DNA from: a virus
Length of the DNA: 64,000 bases
Virus record (IMG/VR): IMGVR_UViG_3300035210_000189
Span: 32,001 to 96,000 of that record
Strand: one strand, 5' to 3'
Within the stretch, counting starts at the first letter, position 1. Each line of letters begins with the position of its first letter. The translations under genes were made by a program, and so were the position numbers. Below, in pieces: positions 3,593-59,100 of the stretch. The notes beneath the pieces were generated by a model. It saw nothing but the letters and a program-made list of their open reading frames with translations. It was not told where the DNA came from and made no database searches.

Positions 3593-3931
3593 CATTTTTA
3601 GGTATCAACCATTGGCTCATTTTATCAAAAATTATTTAATGCTCATTGAATCCCATGCTGGGATTTTTTTTATTGCCTTCTTCCTCTGTCTTGCAGTCTT
3701 TTACAATTTGCCTGAAAAAAGTGTATTGATGTTCTTCGGCGTCTTTAGTATACCGTTCGTCGTCATTCCATTTTTTTTCAAAATTCTATTGTTTTTCTTC
3801 GAAAAAAACGAGTTTAAATAGTTGATTTTTATGTTGTTTTTTAGACCTTAAAAAATATTGAAAAAAGATTAAAAAAGTTTGTAAGTTGTTGATTTATAAG
3901 GATTTAAAATCTTATTTATTTTTAGAAAAAT

Positions 3932-3960
3932 TTGCTTTTTTGTTATTTTCTTGGTATAAT
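3932..3960 (+). promoter_or_regulatory. sigma70-type promoter (representative of many in the window)
   Basis: TTGCTT-N17-TATAAT with extended TG, AT-rich upstream region. Confidence 0.75.
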
Positions 3961-3986
3961 ACTCACACACAAACAGGAGAGCAAAT

Positions 3987-4196
3987 ATGACTATCAAAAT
4001 GAATACTGTAGAATCCAGCTCAATTTTTCAAGTTGGCTATCGTCGTCGCACTCTGCAAGTTCAGTTCAATTCCGGTCGTCTTTATGAGTTCCGTAAGGTG
4101 CCGCGTGCAACGTATGACCAACTTTTGAAGTCTCCATCGAAAGGTGAATTCTTCAACCGTGAAATCAAAGGTTCTTATGTAGAAACTGAGATTTAA
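3987..4196 (+). CDS. KTSC domain protein
   Basis: VESSSIFQVGY...LQVQFNSGRLYEF..VP...Y..LL.SPSKGEFFN.EIKG matches the KTSC consensus. Confidence 0.9.
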   Translation: MTIKMNTVESSSIFQVGYRRRTLQVQFNSGRLYEFRKVPRATYDQLLKSPSKGEFFNREIKGSYVETEI

Positions 4197-4290
4197 GGAG
4201 GGTTTATCAAAGGGCACTTCGGTGCCTTTTGTTATTATTGTAAATTTTAAAAATCATGCTATAATAGCTCAAATTTCGTAGGAGACTACC

Positions 4291-4617
4291 ATGTCCAATT
4301 CCAGTCCTTGTGTTGAATGTCCGTTCAAGCAATCTATTCCCGGTGATTGCCATGTGGCATGTGGTCATCCTGTGGCTAATGGGGAGCGTCAAATGATGCT
4401 TTTAATGATGGTGATGGCAGGTCAGTTAAGCACCATTGAAAAAGCTCTTGGTCTTACAATTAATCCACATGGGGCAGCTTCTGGTTGGGCTAACTTCCCC
4501 GTCAATTACGATCCAATCTGGGTGACTGGCACTTGTTCAATGCTGGAAAACTACAAGACGGCTTTGGCACTTCATCAAGAAAAACAAGCCGCAGAGCTTA
4601 TCCATAAAGAAGTGTGA
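4291..4617 (+). CDS. Cys/His-rich hypothetical protein (possible Zn binding)
   Basis: CVECPF..IPGDCHVAC; GWANFPVNYDPIW; AGGAG RBS. Confidence 0.75.
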   Translation: MSNSSPCVECPFKQSIPGDCHVACGHPVANGERQMMLLMMVMAGQLSTIEKALGLTINPHGAASGWANFPVNYDPIWVTGTCSMLENYKTALALHQEKQAAELIHKEV

Positions 4618-4713
4618 ATGCTTATTACTACACCGTTAACAATTAAAGACTTGAGCGATCAGGTCTTTTTTGTTATAATGCGACTATCCAATTCCTATAA
4701 CGGCTTATTGACA

Positions 4714-5172
4714 ATGAATGATGGTATTACTCACAAAGAACGACTTCATATTGAGAAGGTCGTAAACTTTGCTAAACATATTGATGACAATGGTTTTCAG
4801 CACAAAGTGGCTGCAGCGATTGTTTATAAAAATAAAATCATCAGTCTTGAACACAATGTCGATAAAAGCCATACCTTTCAAAAGCGTTTTGCTAAAAACG
4901 AACATGCCATTTTCTTTCATGCCGAAACCAGTGCTATTCATAAAGCATTAAAAATCATCGGTGCGGATAAGCTCAGCAAAGCTACGCTGCTGGTGGTTAG
5001 GTTGTCTTCGGTTAAGAGTAAGTATCGTCAACGACTGTTGCACCACACCTTAGCTACTAGCAAGCCTTGTGAGGGCTGTTCGTCGTGTATTAACCATTAT
5101 GGCATCAAGAAGGTTATTCACAGTGTTATCAATGGTTTTGAAGTGTACAATAAGTTAGAAATGGTTGCTTAA
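4714..5172 (+). CDS. zinc-dependent cytidine/deoxycytidylate-deaminase-family protein
   Basis: HAE and PCEGC motifs, KVAAAIV strand; start placed downstream of the TTGAGC..TATAAT promoter. Confidence 0.8.
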   Translation: MNDGITHKERLHIEKVVNFAKHIDDNGFQHKVAAAIVYKNKIISLEHNVDKSHTFQKRFAKNEHAIFFHAETSAIHKALKIIGADKLSKATLLVVRLSSVKSKYRQRLLHHTLATSKPCEGCSSCINHYGIKKVIHSVINGFEVYNKLEMVA

Positions 5173-5224
5173 ATAAAACTATTGTGTTATTATAATGTCT
5201 CAAAAATAAACTAGGAGTTCTGCA

Positions 5225-5815
5225 ATGAAGCGAATTATGTTTACCCTCATGTTGTTCCTCAGTATGAGTTTTGCAGCTTATGGAGCACCATCTAATACGG
5301 GTTGTAATATCTCAACCGATGGTCTTTCACCCGAAGTTGTAAAACAAATGATGGATCTTTGTGTAAAAGACAAAGAGAAACAAGCATCAATCACTGGGGT
5401 AGCGTCTGAAAATATCAAGAACCTTGGCGAGTTTGCTGCTGTCTCCAAAGCGTTTGCAAGTTCTCTTGGTGTTGCAGCTAATGAACTGGGTGTGGCCGTA
5501 AATACCTTTTTGGCTTCGCCTGCAGGTATGTTAACGGCTGGTGTGATTATTTGGAAAGTGTTTGCCATGAATATTCTTGGTCTTTTATTCATTCTCGTTA
5601 CTATTGGTATTTGGATTTTCATGTTGCGTGCTGTTATGACAGAAAAATTTGAAACTAAAATGGTTGAAGGTTGGGGTAAAACACAAAAAGAAAAACGCAC
5701 TCGTGTTTACATTGATTTTGGTGACCTCTCTGGTGAACGTGTAGGATCTCTCTTTGTTGTAAACGCTGTCCCAATTATCTTAATCATTATTATTGTGGCT
5801 AACATGATGCACTAA
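5225..5815 (+). CDS. membrane protein with signal peptide
   Basis: N-terminal signal and C-terminal hydrophobic helices. Confidence 0.8.
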   Translation: MKRIMFTLMLFLSMSFAAYGAPSNTGCNISTDGLSPEVVKQMMDLCVKDKEKQASITGVASENIKNLGEFAAVSKAFASSLGVAANELGVAVNTFLASPAGMLTAGVIIWKVFAMNILGLLFILVTIGIWIFMLRAVMTEKFETKMVEGWGKTQKEKRTRVYIDFGDLSGERVGSLFVVNAVPIILIIIIVANMMH

Positions 5816-5850
5816 TGATTTAATGATGAAAAGGCACTTAGGTGCCTTTT

Positions 5851-6321
5851 TTAGTTTTGCGTTTTATTATTTTTGATTACGGTAAATCCTAATTTCACTT
5901 CTTTTTTAATACCTTGTGCCCTTTCAGCTAAAACAGCATTTACGTCAGCCAAATCATAATTAATTTCATGAATTACAATTCTTGTAGGGTTTAATTTTGC
6001 TCTTTTTTCTGCTGTATACTCAATTTTTTCAGATTCACTCATTTTAGCCATTTTGTCATATTCTTCATCAACTAATCGTTGGACAGAATTAACAACCATA
6101 TCATCAAAAGATTTTTTTGGTTGAGTTGGTTGAGCTTCTGATAAACTCATGTTTATCATGAGTGCAGTAGGAAGTGCAAGCCCAGCTATCAAGAGTTTAT
6201 GGTTAGCACAAAAACTTTTGAAACTTTGAAAAATCCCTTTTGTATTTTCAAACTTATCGGATTGATTAAGATTCTTATAAAATTCTTCTTTGAGTTCTTT
6301 TATCTCTGAGATCTTGGACAT
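5851..6321 (-). CDS. hypothetical protein, single TM
   Basis: 156 aa ORF, GGAG RBS. Confidence 0.7.
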   Translation of the reverse strand: MSKISEIKELKEEFYKNLNQSDKFENTKGIFQSFKSFCANHKLLIAGLALPTALMINMSLSEAQPTQPKKSFDDMVVNSVQRLVDEEYDKMAKMSESEKIEYTAEKRAKLNPTRIVIHEINYDLADVNAVLAERAQGIKKEVKLGFTVIKNNKTQN

Positions 6322-6482
6322 AATTTATCTCCATCATGAGTGTTATTTTTTACATTTTAACATATTAAAATAATAATTATAGAGTTCACCTTTAAAATTT
6401 GGTCGCACAAAGAATAAAAACATTGCTTGTTTATAGATTATTTGCTATAATTTAAGCCTATTAATTCAGTGAGAAAATAATT

Positions 6483-6677
6483 ATGTCTTTTTTTGAAGGT
6501 GGTGGTAAATCGCGGATTCATGATGATGTTGCTGATGTTCATAAACGTTTTGATGCGGCTGTTAAATCTGCCAAAACCGACAGTCAGAAGCGTAACCTTG
6601 AAATGGAACGTTCTGCGGCTGTAAGTGCTGTTTGTAAGCGTTATGGTCAATCTGGTCGTGGCGGTTTTCTAGAATAA
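6483..6677 (+). CDS. small hypothetical protein
   Basis: 64 aa ORF downstream of TGCTATAAT. Confidence 0.65.
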   Translation: MSFFEGGGKSRIHDDVADVHKRFDAAVKSAKTDSQKRNLEMERSAAVSAVCKRYGQSGRGGFLE

Positions 6678-6714
6678 TATATTAAATCCGTTCACTTACT
6701 ATAAGGTGCTTAAC

Positions 6715-6912
6715 ATGTCGTATACGTTTGATGAAAAAAACAATGTCTATCTCATTGAAAGTAATCTTGAAGAAAACGATCTTTATGATGTTCTTTTGTC
6801 GATAGCAAAAGAGAATGATCTTATTGAAGCTAACCAAGCATCTGATTCTTCCCATATCAGGTTTATTTTATCAAATAACAGTGTTGATGTTGAGTTTTTA
6901 CCAGAAGAATAA
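6715..6912 (+). CDS. small acidic hypothetical protein
   Basis: ORF with AAGGT RBS. Confidence 0.6.
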   Translation: MSYTFDEKNNVYLIESNLEENDLYDVLLSIAKENDLIEANQASDSSHIRFILSNNSVDVEFLPEE

Positions 6913-6924
6913 ATGGAGATTATT

Positions 6925-7500
6925 ATGCGTAAAATAATGTTTACTTTGTTGGGCTGTTTGTTATTTTCTTCTGCTTTTGGTGAAGAATTTAAAAGCATTC
7001 GAGACTTCACCTATAAAGGTATTAGTTTTTCTTCGTCTATTGATGATTTGAAGGCAAAAGGTTTTTCTTGTGTTGATAAAACTTGTATCATGGGAGATTC
7101 ATTTTTTAAATATACGTCACCGGGATTTTTTTCAACTGAACAATTTGCTCGTAATGGTAAAACAGTGACTTTCCATGAAGGACATCCGCTTAAAATTACT
7201 ATTGATCAACTGTATCCTGATACTGGTGAAGAGTGTAGTGTTATTATTAAAGATATTAAAACTAGATTTAATGATAAATACAAAGCTGATATAACGTTTA
7301 GAACTTATCCTAGTCGTTATGGTTCTGCTACTGATTATGACACGCTGTTAGGATCTGTTAAATTAGGTGAAGATGTTTTGCGAGTTAATTTTTCTTGCAA
7401 TAAGATTCAAAACCCGACAACTTCTGAACGGTTGACATTCATTCACGCTCTTTTTCACTATGAAAACTTAGCATCAAGATTACTTATTGATGATATTTAA
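6925..7500 (+). CDS. secreted/periplasmic hypothetical protein
   Basis: Sec signal MRKIMFTLLGCLLFSSAFG. Confidence 0.75.
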   Translation: MRKIMFTLLGCLLFSSAFGEEFKSIRDFTYKGISFSSSIDDLKAKGFSCVDKTCIMGDSFFKYTSPGFFSTEQFARNGKTVTFHEGHPLKITIDQLYPDTGEECSVIIKDIKTRFNDKYKADITFRTYPSRYGSATDYDTLLGSVKLGEDVLRVNFSCNKIQNPTTSERLTFIHALFHYENLASRLLIDDI

Positions 7501-7570
7501 AAAAGCCTTCGCGGGCTTTTGTTTGTTTGCGTTATACCTGTCATTTAAATTTTAATAATGGAGAATACTT

Positions 7571-7870
7571 ATGACTGTAGATGATTTAAAAAAGTTTTTT
7601 TACGAGTATGGCGAAACTGATGAACCCCATAAATTCGATAGGATTCCAGTGAAATTTAGTAAGCGTGATGATCTTCATGCCTTCATTTTGCTGGATAACA
7701 TTATGCCTGATGGTCACACTATGATTTCAGCCGCTGAACACGATGAAATTTATTTGGATGTTGATATTGAAGAACTGGCAAAAGTAATTACCCAAGAACA
7801 GATTCTGGAATTGGTTCGTTGCGGTGTGTCTTTTGACGGTCATCATGACTGTCTATATATGTTCGTTTAA
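7571..7870 (+). CDS. hypothetical protein
   Basis: 99 aa ORF, GGAG RBS. Confidence 0.75.
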   Translation: MTVDDLKKFFYEYGETDEPHKFDRIPVKFSKRDDLHAFILLDNIMPDGHTMISAAEHDEIYLDVDIEELAKVITQEQILELVRCGVSFDGHHDCLYMFV

Positions 7871-7939
7871 ATATAAGTTGATTAAAAGTGGCTCATTTGG
7901 TATAATGGGCCTTCTTAATTCACAGTAAGGTGTTTTACC

Positions 7940-8374
7940 ATGTCTCTTAAACTGATTACAACTCCTGATACTCTCAAACTTCACCCAACCAGCTATGAGC
8001 GTGGTGTTATGATTGATTGTTTTGATAAGTTGGCACCTACTGATATGGAGCGTAAACAGTACTTGTCAGACGCCGTTGTCAAAAAAATGCGAGATTTTGT
8101 TGAATCGCACTACATTGTTTTCTACTTTGTAGATTCTTACACTTATTCTGTCAAAGACTATAATGACAGTGATGGCGATTACACTCATTCTGACTCTGAA
8201 ACCAACCGTTATCCTGTTCCAATGGAAGAAATGGTTGCTCAATTGACCGAAATGGGCTATAATGATGCCACTAAAATGATAAAGGATGCGGTTATCATAG
8301 ACCACGATATTAACCTTTATTACGGTGAGCGTATCTCACTTCAATCCTATGCCATTAAAGTTGAAGGAATTTAA
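7940..8374 (+). CDS. hypothetical protein (YYG family, related to 8376, 24618, 25108)
   Basis: ORF with promoter; shares D.DG.Y.H and C-terminal YYG motifs with its neighbour. Confidence 0.75.
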   Translation: MSLKLITTPDTLKLHPTSYERGVMIDCFDKLAPTDMERKQYLSDAVVKKMRDFVESHYIVFYFVDSYTYSVKDYNDSDGDYTHSDSETNRYPVPMEEMVAQLTEMGYNDATKMIKDAVIIDHDINLYYGERISLQSYAIKVEGI

Positions 8375-8375
8375 T

Positions 8376-8888
8376 ATGTCTATCCACTACGTTGCAGGGC
8401 ACAATGCTGATCAAGGTGAAGCCTTCGTTTGGCAAATTGAAAATGGTCTTTTGCATGAAGACATCAGTTATATGCTTAAAGAAATTTTCCCTGAGCTTCG
8501 TTCTATGCTGGATTATGCACCAGAGGACGCCTACAACGCAGAAGTTCATGTGGCTAACAAGATTAAATTTCACGATAAAATTGTGGAAGACTACTTGTTG
8601 ATTTATTACCCAGTCATTGAGACGGCTCCTGTCGATTCTTATCGGGATGAAGGTGGTGGTTATTGCCATAAGTCTACCACTGACGTAGACATTGAGGTTC
8701 CACTTTACGAGATTCGTGAACTCATTCGTGAACACTATCCACAAGTAGAAAATGTTGAGGCTTTTGTTGACAACATGCTTAAAATTCATGCGAATGACAC
8801 TTATTGGCATAATGACTATTATGGCAGTAGTGTGACTTACGCTTACATTAAAATCAAAAAAGATGCTGACCTTAGTCGCTATCTTTAA
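8376..8888 (+). CDS. hypothetical protein (YYG family)
   Basis: DYYGSSVTYAYI motif; AAGGA RBS before ATG 8376. Confidence 0.75.
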   Translation: MSIHYVAGHNADQGEAFVWQIENGLLHEDISYMLKEIFPELRSMLDYAPEDAYNAEVHVANKIKFHDKIVEDYLLIYYPVIETAPVDSYRDEGGGYCHKSTTDVDIEVPLYEIRELIREHYPQVENVEAFVDNMLKIHANDTYWHNDYYGSSVTYAYIKIKKDADLSRYL

Positions 8889-8905
8889 TCTATAAGGAAA
8901 CTGTT

Positions 8906-9208
8906 ATGAGCCGTATGACTGTTCGTTTTGACCGCGTATTTAATAAGAAAGGCAACTTTAACCTTAAAGAGTTTGGAATCGAATATTTTGACCCTTATCG
9001 TAGCAGTGATAATGAAAATCATGTTGAGTTGTTTGAACTCTTGTTTGATAGCAATGGTAACGTGCTTGATGAAGTTCGTCGTGAACTTGAAAGTTACATC
9101 AAGTTGAAAAACTTTCCAGCCTTATCCGATGCAGTCAAACTGTATTATGCTGGTATCCACGGTAGCAACACCAAAGGCTCTTATCCAGCGATTTATATGT
9201 ATCGTTAA
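8906..9208 (+). CDS. hypothetical protein, paralog of 54578..54904
   Basis: Shared F..(V/I)FN..GNF, DP, LFD..GN, L.DAV.LY.A motifs. Confidence 0.75.
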   Translation: MSRMTVRFDRVFNKKGNFNLKEFGIEYFDPYRSSDNENHVELFELLFDSNGNVLDEVRRELESYIKLKNFPALSDAVKLYYAGIHGSNTKGSYPAIYMYR

Positions 9209-9315
9209 TTAAAAAAAATTTCAAAAATAAATTTAAAAATGTTAAAAAAGTAGTTGTTTTAAAATAAAAACGTTGATATAATAACCCCACACTAACTAAA
9301 TAAGGAAACACAATC

Positions 9316-9441
9316 ATGGCAACAGTAAATTCAGCAAAAAAAGAACAAGAAATCGAACAAGCCTACGCACAGGTTGCTGAAACCAAGCGTCGTCAAGAAG
9401 AAAAAATGTGGTCGCAACACGAAAAAGCACGCAAGCGTTAA
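9316..9441 (+). CDS. 41 aa small protein (not in ORF track)
   Basis: MATVNSAKKEQEIEQAYAQVAETKRRQEEKMWSQHEKARKR; TAAGGA RBS and upstream TATAAT. Confidence 0.6.
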   Translation: MATVNSAKKEQEIEQAYAQVAETKRRQEEKMWSQHEKARKR

Positions 9442-9469
9442 TTCCCTTCATTTTCCAAAAGGATTTACA

Positions 9470-9805
9470 ATGTTACGTGTTAATTCAGTAATTGAGTTCG
9501 ACAGCCTAAATGACCCACCAGAAGGGTTCTATGCTTCTGCAATGGGTTGGTATTTTCATGGTGAGCTTCAAGATATGGTAGGCTTTGATATTCCATCCGC
9601 TTCTGTTGACTTAATGGAAGTTCCCGATGGTATCTATGCTGGCTCTTACAAAGGGCTGGATTGCACCTTCTTCAACTGGTCTTATGTTGATGAAGATACC
9701 TACAGTAAGCAGCGTCGGCATCGTGGTTTTATTGTCCTTAATTCGGATAAAACAGCTTATGAATTTGCTCAGTTATCTTATGATGCAAAACGTAGATATC
9801 TTTAA
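9470..9805 (+). CDS. hypothetical protein
   Basis: AAGGA RBS before ATG 9470; terminator downstream. Confidence 0.7.
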   Translation: MLRVNSVIEFDSLNDPPEGFYASAMGWYFHGELQDMVGFDIPSASVDLMEVPDGIYAGSYKGLDCTFFNWSYVDEDTYSKQRRHRGFIVLNSDKTAYEFAQLSYDAKRRYL

Positions 9806-9906
9806 TCGTTAAATAACAATGAAAAAGGTCAAGTTCGCTTGATCTTTTTTTTGCCTTTATTTTCTTGTCATGTTATACTAAACCATTACTTATTCGGAGT
9901 GTCACC

Positions 9907-10338
9907 ATGCATAATATTGTAGCGTCCAAACTTATTAATGACCTTATACTGAACACTGATGACAGTAGCCATCTTATTCTCGATGAAATCAAAAAAAACC
10001 AAAGCCTTGTTGGTGTTCGTCAACTCTTGATTGAAATTGATACAGATGATGATTTTGCCGTTGATGGTTCATCTGATTTTTCGAAAACATTTGATTTGGG
10101 TGAACGTGATATTGTTGAAGTCTACAAAGAAGCTATTAAGAGTATCAAGTTTGGGCATGATAACGTCAAAAATTATAAGGTCGATAATTTCTTGGAATAT
10201 ATCTTGTCAGAAGACGCATTGAATGAAGTGGCTACTGGTCATCTTTCAACAGGCGGTAATCAGACAATTTATGTCACCGTTGTCGATGCTCCTAGAAATA
10301 TGTATATTGGTTCATTAGTTATTGATTTGACCCGATAA
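9907..10338 (+). CDS. hypothetical protein
   Basis: GGAG RBS before ATG 9907. Confidence 0.7.
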   Translation: MHNIVASKLINDLILNTDDSSHLILDEIKKNQSLVGVRQLLIEIDTDDDFAVDGSSDFSKTFDLGERDIVEVYKEAIKSIKFGHDNVKNYKVDNFLEYILSEDALNEVATGHLSTGGNQTIYVTVVDAPRNMYIGSLVIDLTR

Positions 10339-10395
10339 TGCTTTCATTATTCATTCAGTTGTGATAAAATAGGCCCACTTGAGGGCTTATTTTTT

Positions 10396-11043
10396 ATGAG
10401 AAAACCAATTAATGTCAATACTATTGAGGAACTGAAAGCAGTTGCATTTGATTATAATGCTCCTGTTTTCGTTGCTCCTGAGCTTTTGATGAATGAAATC
10501 ATTGAGACTGATGAAGAATGTGATAAACTCTTGGCTAACTTATCCCATTATCATAAAAGTGTCATCGCCTTCTTTTTCAGATGTGAAGGATTTAGGGTTT
10601 ATTTTTTGGTGATTGATAGCTTTGTTGTCGTAAAAAACTATGTTCTTGATAATGTAACGATTGCTAATTTGAAAAAATTTGTCATTCAATCCGTTCGCTT
10701 TGATTCAGGCAGTCACCAGTGGAATGAAAAACAATTTTATTCTTACAAACGTGGAAATAAACCTGACAGTGTGGAACGCAGTTACGGTTCTTTTATTGCT
10801 AGGTATAGCCATGTTTATGATAAAACCTATGTGAGCCAAATTAGAGTCACTGATCAATCACAATACCTTATTGACATGACCTTTAAACGCAATGGTCGGC
10901 AAATCACATTGATTGAACTGTCAGCAGACTATCCAGAAATTGCATCCGCTTTGAGAGGTAAAGTTCGGTCAATTGAAAACCTTACAAACAAAAGCAAATT
11001 GATTAAATCTTATCTACCTATTATTGATATGATTCTTATTTAA
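10396..11043 (+). CDS. hypothetical protein with C-terminal M-x-x-I tag
   Basis: ends LPIIDMILI*. Confidence 0.8.
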   Translation: MRKPINVNTIEELKAVAFDYNAPVFVAPELLMNEIIETDEECDKLLANLSHYHKSVIAFFFRCEGFRVYFLVIDSFVVVKNYVLDNVTIANLKKFVIQSVRFDSGSHQWNEKQFYSYKRGNKPDSVERSYGSFIARYSHVYDKTYVSQIRVTDQSQYLIDMTFKRNGRQITLIELSADYPEIASALRGKVRSIENLTNKSKLIKSYLPIIDMILI

Positions 11044-16914: not shown

Positions 16915-18000
16915 ATGTCTACGTTTAAAGCGACAGTTCTTCCAGTCATTGTTGAGCCACATCCTAACGCTGATGCGATTGAACTGGCTCGCGTCGGGGA
17001 TTTCTTCTCGATCATTCAAAAAGGATACCTGAAAACAGGTGACTTGGCTGTTTATATTCCAGAAGGTGCCCTTGTTCCTGATTTCATTCAAGAAGAAGTG
17101 GGTTGCCTTGGTAAATTGGCAGGTTCCAAGAAAAACCGTTTGAAGCCTTCCATGCTTCGTGGTGTTCTTAGTCAAGGTCTTTGCTTTAAAGCCCGTGATG
17201 GCTGGGCTATCGGTGACGATAAAGCCGAAGAATTGGGTATCATCAAGTATGAAGCTCCTATTCCAGCCTCCATGAATGGTGAGATTTCTAACGTGGGCAT
17301 TGAAAACACTTTCCACTTTGACATTGAAAACGTCAAGCGTTACCCTGATGTATTGGTTGATGGTGAGCTTGTATCCATGACTGAAAAACTTCATGGCACG
17401 TTCACTATTGCTGGTAGCGTTTATGGTAAAGACCCTATTCCACATGTGGTTGATGGTCGCTCATTCGTGAGTAGCAAAGGTTTCTTTAACAAAGGCTTGG
17501 TGCTTCGTGACAACGAACAAAATGCTCATAACATTTACATTCGTGTTGCTAAAAAGTTCAATCTTTATGAGATTACAGCCATCCTTGCAGATCGCTACAA
17601 AACCAATGCTTATATTTCGGGCGAAACATTTGGTGCTGTTCAAGATTTGACTTACGGCTTGGATGCTGGCGTATTTGATTTCCGTGTCTTCAACTTGTTC
17701 CTTGGTTCGCGTAGTGATGCAAAAGGCGTGTTCCCAGTGGATGATGATGTGCTTGAAGCCTTGCTCACTGAGTTCAACTTGAAACGTGTTCCTGTGCTTT
17801 ACAAAGGCCCATACAGCAAAGAAGTCATGTTGAAATACACTGATGGGTTGGAAACTTACTCTGGCAAAGAAACACACATTCGTGAGGGTCTTGTTGTGGA
17901 ACCGCTTGTTCAGCGTCGAGATCCAGCCATTGGCCGTGTTGTCTTAAAAAGCGTTTCAACTGCTTACCTTTCTCGCAAAGGCGGCACAGAACTAAACTGA
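16915..18000 (+). CDS. RNA ligase, DRB0094/Rnl2-like family with N-terminal OB-like domain
   Basis: N-terminal HPNADAIELARV; nucleotidyltransferase motifs TEKLHGT (I), GETFG (III), FRVFN (IIIa), REGLVV (IV), LKSVS (V). Confidence 0.88.
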   Translation: MSTFKATVLPVIVEPHPNADAIELARVGDFFSIIQKGYLKTGDLAVYIPEGALVPDFIQEEVGCLGKLAGSKKNRLKPSMLRGVLSQGLCFKARDGWAIGDDKAEELGIIKYEAPIPASMNGEISNVGIENTFHFDIENVKRYPDVLVDGELVSMTEKLHGTFTIAGSVYGKDPIPHVVDGRSFVSSKGFFNKGLVLRDNEQNAHNIYIRVAKKFNLYEITAILADRYKTNAYISGETFGAVQDLTYGLDAGVFDFRVFNLFLGSRSDAKGVFPVDDDVLEALLTEFNLKRVPVLYKGPYSKEVMLKYTDGLETYSGKETHIREGLVVEPLVQRRDPAIGRVVLKSVSTAYLSRKGGTELN

Positions 18001-32138: not shown

Positions 32139-33293
32139 ATGAACCTTTTTCCAAAAATCGAACACATCAACGATATTTTGCCAGCTTTGGCAGGTAAAAC
32201 CTATATCGGTGTGAACAAGCAATCTAACGGTGCAACCGTTCTTTGCTACAACATCAGCAACGGTGAATCTTTTGCTACGCCTTTTGAAAAAGAATGCCGT
32301 GGTATCACCTTTGACCGTGATGGTAAAATTGTAAACCGTCCTTTGCACAAGTTTTTCAACTTGGCAGAGCGTGAAGAAGTATTGCCACACAACATTAACT
32401 GGGATGATGTGGTTGCTGTCTTCGATAAGATGGATGGTTCTATGATTACTGCTGGTGTGTTTCATGGCGACGTATTTGTAAAATCCAAAAAGTCTTTTGA
32501 ATCAGATGTGGCTGTGTCGGCTTTGGCTTATGTTAAAGCAAACCATAAATACGAAGATTTCATTAAGCATTGTGCATCCTTGGATTTGACACCAATCTTT
32601 GAATACACTTCGCCAAACAACCGTATCGTGTTGCGTTACGATGAAGAAAAAATGACGTTGTTGCATGTGCGTCATACTATCAATGGTAATTATTTCATGC
32701 CAGATGAAGTGGCTGCATTGGCTAAGTCGTTTGATATTCCAGTGAACGCTCCATTGTTTGGTAAAGGTTTTGACTTGAAAGCATTGTTGCATTCATTGGA
32801 CACTGTTGAAGGGATTGAAGGTTACGTTATTCAGTTCTCAAATGGTAACATGGTTAAGGTAAAAACAACTTGGTATGTTAACTTACACCACGCAGTAACA
32901 TTCGTGCGTATTCGTGACATTGCTCGCTTGGTTTTATCCGAGAAAATTGACGACTACATTGCATTTGTTGCATTACATGCAAAAGACGCTGATTTGACTC
33001 AAATCCATTACATCAATGACACGATTAAAGCAGAAATTGAAGGAATCAAGAAAGACGTTGCTGATATTTTGGCTCAACATGAAGGTGTTGATTTCAAAAC
33101 CTTGGCAACCACCTACTTGGGTCATCCATATTTCTCTTTCATCATGACTACCGCTCGCGGTAAAGAAGTTGATTACTTGGATTACTACGAACGTAATCGT
33201 TTGAAAGAAGTCTGGTCTTTGGAGCAAGTTGACTTGGGCAACTTCACAGGGACTGATGATTCTGATGATGAAGTTCCAGTAGATGAAGATTAA
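32139..33293 (+). CDS. RNA ligase 1 (T4 Rnl1/RnlA family)
   Basis: ECRG, RPLHKFFN, KMDGS (motif I), FEYTSPNNRIVLRY, IEGYVI, VKVKT.WY. Confidence 0.9.
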   Translation: MNLFPKIEHINDILPALAGKTYIGVNKQSNGATVLCYNISNGESFATPFEKECRGITFDRDGKIVNRPLHKFFNLAEREEVLPHNINWDDVVAVFDKMDGSMITAGVFHGDVFVKSKKSFESDVAVSALAYVKANHKYEDFIKHCASLDLTPIFEYTSPNNRIVLRYDEEKMTLLHVRHTINGNYFMPDEVAALAKSFDIPVNAPLFGKGFDLKALLHSLDTVEGIEGYVIQFSNGNMVKVKTTWYVNLHHAVTFVRIRDIARLVLSEKIDDYIAFVALHAKDADLTQIHYINDTIKAEIEGIKKDVADILAQHEGVDFKTLATTYLGHPYFSFIMTTARGKEVDYLDYYERNRLKEVWSLEQVDLGNFTGTDDSDDEVPVDED

Positions 33294-51686: not shown

Positions 51687-51781
51687 ATTTATTGTAATAA
51701 AAGAAACCCAACCAAGTGTTGGGTTTTTTATTGAACATTCATTTGTACGATGGTATACTGGATGACATTTTGGAGAATTAC

Positions 51782-52480
51782 ATGTATTACATTAATGAAT
51801 ATTTTGGACCTACCTTTGTTGTAAAGCAATTGCCAACACGTATGAAAATTACGGTGACTGAAAAAGTTCATGAAACTTGTGGCAATAAATTGTGTACAGC
51901 TTATGGTGATAGAGGCTTCTTTGATTCATTTTGTCCGCATTGTGGTTCTCGTTGCAGCACCTTTAACATTGAGAAAAAGCGTAATGTATTTGTGAGTGAT
52001 GTTAGTAAAGAAATGGATGATATTCTTATTTACCCTTTTAATGATATTCCAGAAGGGGATTTAATTTTTATTCCAAAGTTTTCGAATGAAGGCTGGTTGA
52101 CACCGCTCACTAAACAACATATTATTTTCAAGTATCTTGTTAGAAAATGTCAGAATCAAGATTGTAATAATTTAGATTATGATATTAACTTCGACCATGT
52201 TTACTGTTCTGGGTGTGGTGTTAAGGCTGAATGTCAGGTAGATGAAAAATACGATTCGAATTTTACTAAAGACACTGCCAAACTATTAAACACATACTCA
52301 GATAAGCATGCATTTAAATCATTTGAACGTCCATTTGATGTTAATAAGGAAGTAGATGAAAATTTGACAGCCTTTAAACAGTTAAAAGAAGCCCAAGAGA
52401 TTGTTGAGCTGCTTGACTCTATTTATGGTGACGGTGCAACAAGTATTCAGAATAGACAAGTTAACTTTTTTGACAATTAA
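51782..52480 (+). CDS. double zinc-ribbon hypothetical protein
   Basis: CGNKLC..CPHCG and CQNQDC..CSGCG. Confidence 0.72.
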   Translation: MYYINEYFGPTFVVKQLPTRMKITVTEKVHETCGNKLCTAYGDRGFFDSFCPHCGSRCSTFNIEKKRNVFVSDVSKEMDDILIYPFNDIPEGDLIFIPKFSNEGWLTPLTKQHIIFKYLVRKCQNQDCNNLDYDINFDHVYCSGCGVKAECQVDEKYDSNFTKDTAKLLNTYSDKHAFKSFERPFDVNKEVDENLTAFKQLKEAQEIVELLDSIYGDGATSIQNRQVNFFDN

Positions 52481-56586: not shown

Positions 56587-56708
56587 GCGGGTGTGTGAGT
56601 GTAATAGGAGAGTTGGCCTTCCGTCCTTGAATAAAGGTTGCTCTACCGTTAAGGCGTGCGTGCCTTGCAACATCGGTAACGTAGGTTCAAATCCTGCCAT
56701 CTGCACCA
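56587..56708 (+). ncRNA. 122 nt CCA-ended tRNA-like RNA with expanded interior
   Basis: acceptor GCGGGTG/CATCTGC-A-CCA; T-arm GTAGG-TTCAAAT-CCTGC; two long internal hairpins in place of the D and anticodon arms. Confidence 0.7.
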
Positions 56709-56839
56709 AATTGTTGTTGTGTTGAAACTTGTTTTATGCTACAATGATTTAAGTTGAGAATTAACCGAAATGCTGGATCATTTCTGTTAAAAGTAGGTGA
56801 TTCAGGTAGACCTAGCTTCTTCTCTTACTCTGAACCAAT

Positions 56840-56913
56840 CGGTGAAACGCTCAAATGGTGAGCAAATGGTGTTGTAACCATACTCGTGGGTTCAAGTCCT
56901 ACTTCACCGGCCA
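56840..56913 (+). tRNA. atypical tRNA / tRNA mimic (Thr-TGT-like, non-7-nt anticodon loop)
   Basis: acceptor CGGTGAA/TTCACCG-G-CCA; D-arm GCTC-AAATGGT-GAGC; ATGGT-GTTGTA-ACCAT; T-arm GTGGG-TTCAAGT-CCTAC. Confidence 0.6.
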
Positions 56914-56954
56914 AATTACTTGATTGTTGTGATGACTTGTGGTATAATCATCCC

Positions 56955-57202
56955 ATCAAACGAATTCGGAGCCTTCGCCATAGAGGGTTGGACAGCAGCG
57001 GTGTCGCGGGCAAGCTGTCACGAAAGGTGAGAATCAACTCCCTTTCATAGTAATGAAGTGCATCAGAGATGAGTTTTTCTCTTGATTAAAACGCTTGGGT
57101 GAAGCGGCCTTTGTTACGAACTTGATTGTCAATTAGCGAAGGAATTATAGTCCTAGTGGCTATGATTAAAACGGTTAGGTGGACTGGCCTTCGTTAAGAC
57201 CA
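56955..57202 (+). ncRNA. structured ncRNA, paralog 1 (5' module plus two GAUUAAAAC three-way junctions)
   Basis: TTGATT-N17-TATAAT promoter (56920-56948); motifs and covarying stems shared with 57250..57455. Confidence 0.65.
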
Positions 57203-57249
57203 AATTAAAAGGTTGTTATTTACAGGTGGTTGATGTATAATAGCGGTCA

Positions 57250-57455
57250 GTTAAACGAATACGGAGAACCACTTAAATGGTTCTGAATGGTAGCGGTGGT
57301 CGGGCGAGCCATTGTAAGAAGGAGAGGTGATTTCTTAGTCCCTCTCTTAGCAACAAGGGCATTGTGGGTGCTGTTTTCCTCGATTAAAACGGTTGGGCGA
57401 ACCGGCTCTTGTTGCAAACCCTATTCCAAAGAGTTGTCGATGACAGCTTTTTTTC
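57250..57455 (+). ncRNA. structured ncRNA, paralog 2 (5' module plus one GAUUAAAAC junction)
   Basis: TTGTTA-N17-TATAAT promoter (57213-57241); ends in terminator AGTTGTC-GAT-GACAGCT-Tn. Confidence 0.65.
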
Positions 57456-57479
57456 TTTTTAACAGTGATGGAGATTGTC

Positions 57480-57692
57480 ATGATTGAGAATAACGAATTT
57501 GCAACTGAGTATGCTGGTCAGCTTGTTTCTTACCTGACGGCTGAGCAACGACAAGCTGTCTTTGCTCATATTGAAACGTTGTTTGATAAAGATGCCATTG
57601 CTTGTATGAAGGCTGATGCTCAGCAGATTGTTGAAATGCGTGCGGATATGGATCGTCGTCTTGCTGCAATGGACGCAAAAACAGCAGTATAA
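57480..57692 (+). CDS. small hypothetical protein
   Basis: GGAG RBS before ATG 57480. Confidence 0.65.
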   Translation: MIENNEFATEYAGQLVSYLTAEQRQAVFAHIETLFDKDAIACMKADAQQIVEMRADMDRRLAAMDAKTAV

Positions 57693-57707: not shown

Positions 57708-57782
57708 TGCCGAATAATCATAGGGGAAGCAGGTAACTGTGTAATCTATGATGTCGTAGGCTAGTCCCTACTTCGGCGGCCA
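57708..57782 (+). ncRNA. 75 nt CCA-ended tRNA mimic lacking a D-arm
   Basis: TGCCGAA/TTCGGCG-G-CCA; GTAGG-CTAGTC-CCTAC; one long hairpin ATCATAG..GCAG-GTAA-CTGT..CTATGAT. Confidence 0.5.
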
Positions 57783-57785
57783 GAT

Positions 57786-57898
57786 TTGCTGTAGGCTCTT
57801 GTAGCCTGTCCGACCGGGTTGTGACCGGGCAGAACCAGACGGTTCCCACCTTTGGGTGGAGTCGATAAGGCATAGGTAATCGGTTCCTATTACAGTGA
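57786..57898 (+). ncRNA. GC-rich multibranch RNA, possible Y-RNA-like fold
   Basis: outer stem TTGCTGTA/TACAGTGA; GCCTGT(C)CGAC/GTCGAT(A)AGGC bulged helix enclosing three short hairpins. Confidence 0.45.
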
Positions 57899-58467: not shown

Positions 58468-59100
58468 TTACATTTTAAATTTTCTTTTGTTTTCACTTTT
58501 TGGCTTTGGTGTTTCTCTGTTGGCTAACAAATTAATCCACTGCGTGTCTTCACGGCCTTGTTTGTCAGCACCATGATACAATTTCACATCACCAAACAAT
58601 TTCGAATCTTCAAGTATTTTTGATAATTCTGGTATGGTGTAGTAGCTGAAAAACCTTCCTTTTGGATCGCTAGATTCACCTTCACCACTTTTGAAGCTTG
58701 CATAGATCTTTCCGCCTTCTTTCATGCTGTCAGCAATTTTCAATAAAGTGGTTTTCAATTCTTCTTTGTTCAAGTGCAACAATGACGCCATACACCACAC
58801 ACCATCAAACTCACATTTCCAGTTTATTTCTGAGAAGTCTTTGTGTTCAACTTGTACACCAGAATTGCTTTTTGCTATTTCAACTAGTTCTTTGGAAGCA
58901 TCCATGCCTTGCACATTGAAGCCAAGATTTTTGAAAGCGATTAAATCACGTCCTGAACCACAGCCAGCGTCTAAGATCTTTGCCCCAGCAGGCATGTTCT
59001 TGGTAAATTCCTTGTGGAGATCGGATATGTCCAAGTTGATAGTGCTTTGAGCATATTCATCAGCATTCTTATTGTAGTAATCTATTGTCTCTTTATTCAT
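58468..59100 (-). CDS. class I SAM-dependent methyltransferase (Methyltransf_11/25-like)
   Basis: TIDYYN, ILDAGCGSGRD, GMDAS, FDGVWCMASLLHL. Confidence 0.88.
   Translation of the reverse strand: MNKETIDYYNKNADEYAQSTINLDISDLHKEFTKNMPAGAKILDAGCGSGRDLIAFKNLGFNVQGMDASKELVEIAKSNSGVQVEHKDFSEINWKCEFDGVWCMASLLHLNKEELKTTLLKIADSMKEGGKIYASFKSGEGESSDPKGRFFSYYTIPELSKILEDSKLFGDVKLYHGADKQGREDTQWINLLANRETPKPKSENKRKFKM

Follow-up and report, generated by a model that had tools for sequence, protein, structure and literature searches.

A repeated three-way-junction RNA module with an invariant junction in tRNA clusters of giant phage-like genomes

A three-way-junction module whose fold is under selection

Three stretches of DNA within a 64-kb piece of a viral genome (the whole stretch analysed, hereafter the window; it belongs to a 152-kb IMG/VR record) are copies of an autonomously folding three-way-junction RNA module, and the fold of this module is under selection. 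The copies are 63–68 nt long. Each begins with the 5′ strand of a closing stem, P1 (8–11 bp), followed by a hairpin, P2, whose base is always formed by A-U, U-A and Y-G pairs. An unpaired UAAAA linker leads from P2 to P3, which has exactly 5 bp, is closed by C-G and carries an RGGYG pentaloop; an invariant G and then the 3′ strand of P1 complete the module. The description of P2 as variable in the first-pass annotation of the window holds for both the length and the sequence of its loop. P3 had been described as followed by GC; the G is indeed invariant, while the next base is C or U and not always C. This C or U (often together with the preceding G) pairs with the G and the C or A just 5′ of P2, and P1 therefore extends into the junction, leaving J1/2 and J3/1 with only 0–1 nt.

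The presence of three copies was borne out by a pattern search. The core pattern GATTAAAACG-NNT-RGGYG-NNNN-GG has exactly three matches in the 64-kb window, all on the + strand (57084, 57164 and 57382), and none in 100 dinucleotide-preserving shuffles. Pattern and model searches revealed no further copies in the 152-kb record. Copy 2 is separated from the upstream copy 1 by 15 nt and is directly followed by GACCAAAUU. The P1-P2-UAAAA-P3 arrangement proposed at first reading is the minimum free energy structure of each copy folded alone (−21.7, −23.7 and −27.5 kcal/mol for copies 1, 2 and 3, with z-scores of −3.3, −4.0 and −3.7), and its stems covary.

To describe the family, a covariance model (R1) was built from 14 copies and applied as a filter to pattern scans of viral, metagenome and genome collections. 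The filtered scans returned 26 module matches, 23 of them distinct; those outside the window comprise 22 matches at 44–87 bits and one degenerate copy at 27 bits. With the degenerate copy excluded, the 22 distinct copies share a mean identity of 61% (range 44–97%) and 16 invariant positions, namely the U of the second P2 pair, GAU-UAA-A-CG, one U in P3, the three Gs of the RGGYG loop, and the Gs closing and following P3. The model search, which had been named as a check on the module, thus found relatives in which pairing is kept with compensatory changes. Sequence conserved without pairing is not what we observe, as the pairs covary at this mean identity.

Standard pairs occupy 95.6% of the 474 pair cells of the R1 alignment, against only 28–49% in a control in which the 3′ partners were slid by 1–3 columns. 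Changes on both sides of a pair were seen in all 9 pairs of P1, in 4 of the 7 pairs of P2 and in 3 of the 5 pairs of P3, and the observed covariation score was reached by none of 500 shuffles. Additionally, an independent MAFFT/RNAalifold run gave the same three helices. We place the RNA on the + strand because of its frequent G-U pairs (present, for example, in P3 of copy 2), the poor R1 score of the reverse strand (11 bits versus 79 bits) and the direction of the predicted promoters and terminator.

Two further structural readings were considered and dropped. In the core clade, 3–4 pairs are possible between the RGGYG loop and the ACC or ACU tail after P1; this pseudoknot has no compensatory pattern, and the tail is missing in L016, L196, L210 and L238. 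A boxA/boxB-like reading of P3 and the 3′ strand of P1 was rejected because P1 covaries freely.

One weak module-like match was observed at 56750–56827 on the + strand (R1 10.4 bits, E 0.5, with UUAAAAG). It sits in a leader, 12 nt upstream of the tRNA-like gene at 56840. Since its minimum-energy fold is not a junction (z −0.7), we do not count it as a module, and it may be a decayed copy or a chance match.

Two predicted small RNA genes with a reusable head and module

The features listed in Table 1 point to two adjacent paralogous non-coding small RNA genes, with the module as the 3′ part of each. RNA 1 would consist of a head, a connector and two modules, and RNA 2 of a head, a connector, one module and a terminator.

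Table 1. Coordinates of the module copies, of the predicted RNA genes and of associated features. Positions refer to the window unless another record or contig is named.
Feature	Position	Strand	Details
Promoter (predicted, sigma-70-type), RNA gene 1	56920..56948	+	TTGATT-17-TATAAT with TG
Head domain, RNA 1	56958..57019	+	leader AAACGAAUUCGGAG; Pa, UGG, Pb with conserved loop AGCGGUGUCGCGGGCAA
Head hairpins, RNA 1	Pa 56970-56976/56983-56989; Pb 56991-56996/57014-57019	+	
Connector hairpin Pc, RNA 1	57022..57046	+	optional; missing in short forms of L013
Module copy 1, three-way junction	57050..57117	+	R1 72 bits
Module copy 2, three-way junction	57133..57197	+	R1 72 bits
Promoter (predicted, sigma-70-type), RNA gene 2	57213..57241	+	TTGTTA-17-TATAAT
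Head domain, RNA 2	57253..57313	+	loop AGCGGUGGUCGGGCGA
Head hairpins, RNA 2	Pa 57265-57271/57278-57284; Pb 57286-57291/57308-57313	+	
Connector hairpin Pc, RNA 2	57321..57347	+	
Module copy 3, three-way junction	57350..57415	+	R1 79 bits; loop GGGCG
Intrinsic terminator (predicted), end of RNA 2	57428..57452	+	
254-aa zinc-ribbon protein	window 51716-52480; L238 2050-2805; G003 377792-378520	+ (window)	
Largest ORFs outside the window	G000 3870-10464 and 115985-117538		
Unusual tRNAs of related contigs	L238 3096-3171; L013 7866-7941		

Equivalent promoters stand in front of the homologous RNAs in L213, L196, L216 and L238. The head has a constant layout, with a leader ending in GGAG, hairpin Pa, UGG and hairpin Pb, the loop of which reads AGCGGYG...GGGCRA, and compensatory changes were found in 11 of its 15 predicted pairs. 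A coding role for the head was rejected: its short ORFs lose frame between the paralogues, which are a 1-nt indel apart. Contigs from the RNA libraries of two studies cover the region; at the contig level, this is a weak hint that the RNAs are expressed.

A model of the head (R2) detected 2, 2, 2, 3 and 2 heads in the five IMG/VR records G000–G004, where strong module matches (53–87 bits) number 3, 3, 3, 4 and 3, respectively. Every head in these records is followed by a module, and a head was never seen without one. The module also occurs without the head. Solo copies were found at three loci: the one in L016 has a promoter and a terminator to itself, the one in L210 is flanked by a small ORF and a terminator, and the one in L238 opens a promoter-driven transcript. 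We conclude that head and module are separable building blocks. In line with the modularity claimed at first reading, the number of modules per predicted transcript varies (two, one, or a module alone).

The constant order of head and module might speak for a passive role, in which the module would be a structural 3′ cap that shields a functional head domain from exonucleases. As expected of such a cap, the module always comes after the head, and often no other structure separates it from the 3′ end. It also occurs paired, however, and on its own with its own promoter and terminator (L016, L238), and a cap has no need of an invariant single-stranded UAAAA or of the RGGYG loop. We therefore regard a cap as very improbable.

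Distribution of the family and neighbouring protein genes

Only about ten giant phage-like contigs were found to carry the family. They include the record of the window and four other IMG/VR records, one of which is 437 kb long and estimated to be 98% complete, as well as several metagenome contigs and a phage-like contig binned into a Flavobacteriaceae MAG. The designation "phage" follows the IMG/VR and CheckV labels. The stretch is present in public sequencing runs from peat, groundwater, freshwater, wastewater and ice. One metagenome contig of 1.86 Mb, Ga0308158_10000001 (L199, L218), has four module copies and contains the 179-kb G002, which IMG/VR labels a "provirus"; this may reflect integration of the element into a much larger genome or a mis-join with one.

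Other searches added little to this list. Relaxed pattern scans of viral contigs gave mostly chance matches in coding DNA, with only five related records passing the stem check or R1, and widening the A-run by 0–3 bases brought in no added family member. A 15-mer from the head loop had 92 matches, among which the confirmed relatives were only L011, L012, L013 and L015, all known already. A blastn search with the region found no match among 50,697 phage records and 72,556 plasmids, and a protein-based search for syntenic loci returned the closest relative only.

Searches of all five records did not detect Terminase_6N, and Pfam gave no match for the three largest ORFs of G000 outside the window (964, 794 and 518 aa); we conclude that the element is largely composed of unknown genes. 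No member of the CCA-adding enzyme family was detected in G000–G004.

Within the window there are two RNA ligase genes on the + strand (16915–18000 and 32139–33293). They belong to different families, one being Rnl2-like with a PHA02142 OB domain and the other T4 Rnl1-like. A SAM-dependent methyltransferase gene (58468–59100, − strand) lies just downstream of the RNA island and weakly matches the PHROG "tRNA methyltransferase" family; a methyltransferase with 50% identity has the same arrangement in L213 (1–282).

In distant members of the family, a single protein was found near the module (Table 1). It has 254 aa, matches no Pfam family and contains two zinc-ribbon-like motifs of the form CxxC...CxxC. 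Its gene is directly upstream of the module in L238 and 3–5 kb upstream in G000 and G003. As a partner of the module this protein was rejected, as it is cut to terminal remnants in G002 and G004, which retain modules.

A constant setting of tRNAs and tRNA-like RNAs

In every lineage found, tRNA or tRNA-like genes surround the RNAs of the family. The two RNA genes of the window are flanked by an RNA at 56587–56708, a divergent tRNA at 56840–56910 and a CCA-ending RNA at 57708–57786. The first of these (+ strand) is promoter-driven and has a tRNA-type acceptor stem, a canonical T arm and a 3′ ACCA, with about 87 nt in between; its sub-threshold Rfam tmRNA match (17.7 bits) involves the ends only. 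The divergent tRNA (+ strand; Rfam 34.2 bits) has a UGU-type loop and an encoded GCCA, is not called by ARAGORN, and is preceded by an 80-nt leader with its own promoter. In related contigs we observed two unusual tRNAs (Table 1), an amber-reading tRNA with a CUA anticodon and a tRNA with an 8-nt anticodon loop (agaa), which hint at recoding or frameshift suppression.

The third neighbour, on the + strand, is itself a CCA-ending three-way junction (z −2.5). It is composed of a 7-bp acceptor stem, one hairpin, a 3-nt linker, a 5-bp T-like arm, the 3′ strand of the acceptor and GCCA, and this order of parts is that of the module. The base of its hairpin (AUCAUAG/CUAUGAU) is close to that of P2 in module copy 2 (AUUAUAG/CUAUGAU). 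Comparison of G000/G001 with G002/G004 reveals double compensatory changes in its acceptor stem, while G002 and G004 carry a different central hairpin, an indication that exchange of parts takes place in the island. Additionally, the tRNA-likes have after their CCA a CCAAAUU-type trailer that also stands after P1 of copy 2, and RA-ACY-UAAUUU is found downstream of most modules. These trailers read like a shared A/U-rich processing site.

Such a position raises the possibility that the module is only a cis-acting element of tRNA-type transcripts, i.e. a structured leader or spacer that does not itself act in trans. Its role would be to guide or block processing by RNase P, RNase E or exonucleases, or to sustain elongation by RNA polymerase through long untranslated operons of tRNAs and small RNAs. 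In L013 and L196, 10 nt separate the 3′ end of the module from a downstream tRNA (tRNA-Cys and tRNA-Met, respectively), and in L238, which has an array of 7 tRNAs, a module at promoter position +1 is found 80 nt before tRNA-Asn. The A/U-rich, RNase E-like sites after P1 fit processing in cis as well, and antitermination would fit the order promoter, module, terminator and ORF at 57213–57692, where the ORF has no predicted promoter. The weak module-like leader before the tRNA-like gene at 56840 would be a further case by its position, but it does not fold into a junction. Moreover, copy 3 and the copies in L216, L016 and L210 are followed only by a terminator or another module and by no tRNA; a simple processing or stability signal does not need 16 invariant junction and loop positions; and the boxA-like look of the 3′ strand of P1 is unconserved. 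On balance, we consider a purely cis-acting element unlikely.

A tRNA-patterned handle or decoy as a proposed function

Among the readings that we compared, we rank first the one in which the module is a tRNA-patterned, non-decoding handle or decoy that is recognised by a protein. We give it a probability of about 0.35, so it should be taken as a tentative working model. According to this model, the module would be patterned on, and probably descended from, the adjacent non-decoding tRNA-like RNAs. P1 would correspond to the acceptor stem, P2 to a single hairpin replacing the D and anticodon arms, UAAAA to a 5-nt variable loop and P3 to a 5-bp T stem. Release of the module from tRNA-type transcripts would take place by a cut at the A/U-rich site after P1 or, ahead of a tRNA, by RNase P; once free, it would serve as a stable handle or decoy in trans. 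A protein that normally handles tRNA or another stable RNA, be it a host defence or processing factor or a phage enzyme, could hold on to it at the invariant junction and the RGGYG loop, and the head or the variable P2 hairpin may contribute specificity.

This proposal is consistent with the constancy of the tRNA-cluster setting across lineages, with a tRNA-like architecture (5-bp P3, 5-nt linker) that is matched by a neighbour with the same order of parts, with the trailers in common with the tRNA-likes and with the two RNA ligase genes of the window. Several observations weigh on the other side. The only nearby protein in distant members, the zinc-ribbon protein, is dispensable. The module lacks defining tRNA features and is not matched by the Rfam tRNA model. 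Ligand pockets and ribozyme cores just as typically combine free stems with an invariant junction. The argument for descent from a tRNA-like RNA draws on the architecture and on one hairpin in common, and this hairpin may be a recent swap, because the hairpin of the tRNA-like differs in G002 and G004.

Since the elements carry non-decoding tRNA look-alikes together with two RNA ligases, the RNAs are candidate players in a conflict between phages and tRNA-targeting defence. Whichever function is true, the family offers a clean case for study, with a compact module, 16 invariant positions, heavy covariation, a reusable head and module, and standalone copies. The module is short enough for direct biochemistry, and the sigma-70-type promoters should work in laboratory bacteria.

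Comparison with known RNA classes

We compared the window and nine related loci with Rfam 15 at gathering and permissive thresholds (E limits of 10 for the window region, 5 for L195, L196, L213, L216 and L011, and 1 for L238, L210, L016 and L218), and only tRNAs and the sub-threshold tmRNA-like match were returned. Thus, the module matches neither the hammerhead nor any other Rfam family. A literature search on the core strings gave chance matches only, e.g. the lariat-capping ribozyme.

The tRNA itself is the first class to be set beside the module. Neither cmscan (RF00005, E up to 10) nor ARAGORN calls a tRNA at any of the three modules; the tRNAs or tRNA-likes that they report are at 56840, 40430 and 53602. 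P3 has the length of a T stem and UAAAA that of a variable loop. Unlike a tRNA, the module has no D arm and no anticodon-type loop, its P3 is capped by the 5-nt RGGYG loop instead of a 7-nt T loop, its P1 has 8–11 bp where the acceptor has 7 bp, and most copies lack an encoded CCA. The resemblance is closer to D-arm-less tRNA-likes such as the one at 57708–57786, in which a closing stem, a hairpin, a short linker, a 5-bp stem-loop and the return of the closing stem follow one another, and with which the module has the trailer sequence and the genomic island in common.

Ribozymes are reported in phage tRNA arrays, and the module resembles three-way-junction ribozymes in size, topology, an invariant core with covarying stems and the proximity of phage tRNAs. 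It might then represent a new class of small self-cleaving ribozymes that would cut polycistronic small-RNA and tRNA transcripts into units. Its length of about 65 nt, its free stems and the invariant core of its three-way junction are what one typically sees in a small ribozyme, and the tandem copies within a tRNA array recall those already described. The first-pass annotation had remarked on the absence of the hammerhead core, and this is confirmed: there is no CUGANGA in 56900–57450 and no Rfam hammerhead match. The module has neither the core motif nor a model match of the hammerhead or HDV-like ribozymes, and the twister, twister-sister, pistol, hatchet, hairpin and HDV-like classes were dismissed in the same way, with no Rfam match at the E limits used. 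For the window region, raising the E limit to 10 yields no match to a self-cleaving model, outside the junction we saw no conserved dinucleotide that could be the cleavage site, and copies directly before terminators have no product to release. A self-cleaving module therefore appears quite improbable.

We are equally sceptical of a ligand-binding aptamer, which would serve as a sensor or as a multi-copy RNA sponge for a small molecule; that such a sponge would take up a nucleotide signal of a host defence system, to give one example, we likewise hold to be improbable. The module shares with purine-type three-way-junction riboswitch aptamers a conserved junction, variable stems, a length of about 65–70 nt and occasional tandems, and some aptamer classes are known to occur in tandem. 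Conservation is focused on the junction (AU/GAU, UAAAA, CG/CG-G), as in those aptamers, and the copies belong to non-coding genes with strong promoters. In contrast to riboswitch aptamers, the module is found outside 5′ UTRs and has no expression platform; its copies are in non-coding genes, before tRNAs or terminators, and no Rfam riboswitch or aptamer class matches. When we read the sequences by eye, no alternative, mutually exclusive pairing with downstream terminators recurred between copies. Furthermore, the invariance of the RGGYG loop is more suggestive of a tertiary contact, or of one with a macromolecule, than of a pocket.

Taken as one broader possibility, that the module represents a new class of RNAs with catalytic or ligand-binding activity, either a ribozyme that processes tRNAs and small RNAs or a multi-copy sponge aptamer, these readings are still doubtful. 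The sponge could be directed at a host defence signal or at tRNA 3′ ends. By analogy with GG-containing loops, which are known to bind CCA ends, base pairing between the GGY of the RGGYG loop and the RCC at a tRNA 3′ end is conceivable.

Y RNAs of the YrlA type are similarly modular, tRNA-mimicking and non-coding, and can occupy phage tRNA clusters. We rejected membership in this class: the module has no Rfam match to it and lacks a T-loop/D-loop pair, and no TROVE/Ro60 domain was found in G000–G004 by a search that gave matches in control genomes.

By context, the closest known RNAs are rnaC and rnaD of phage T4 (species 1 and 2), which are likewise small non-coding RNAs among phage tRNA genes and part of tRNA-type transcripts; rnaC, moreover, has parts that resemble a tRNA (a T arm). 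What is shared is the genomic context, without homology in sequence or structure. With filters off, the best R1 match in the T4 tRNA cluster scores 9.4 bits and falls in segB, with none in rnaC or rnaD. These RNAs do not have the UAAAA junction, the RGGYG loop or a repeated module. Small stable RNAs of phage tRNA clusters have been recognised since the work on T4 in the 1970s, and we know of none with an assigned role. The module described here thus defines an uncatalogued RNA family of this long-known, unexplained kind.
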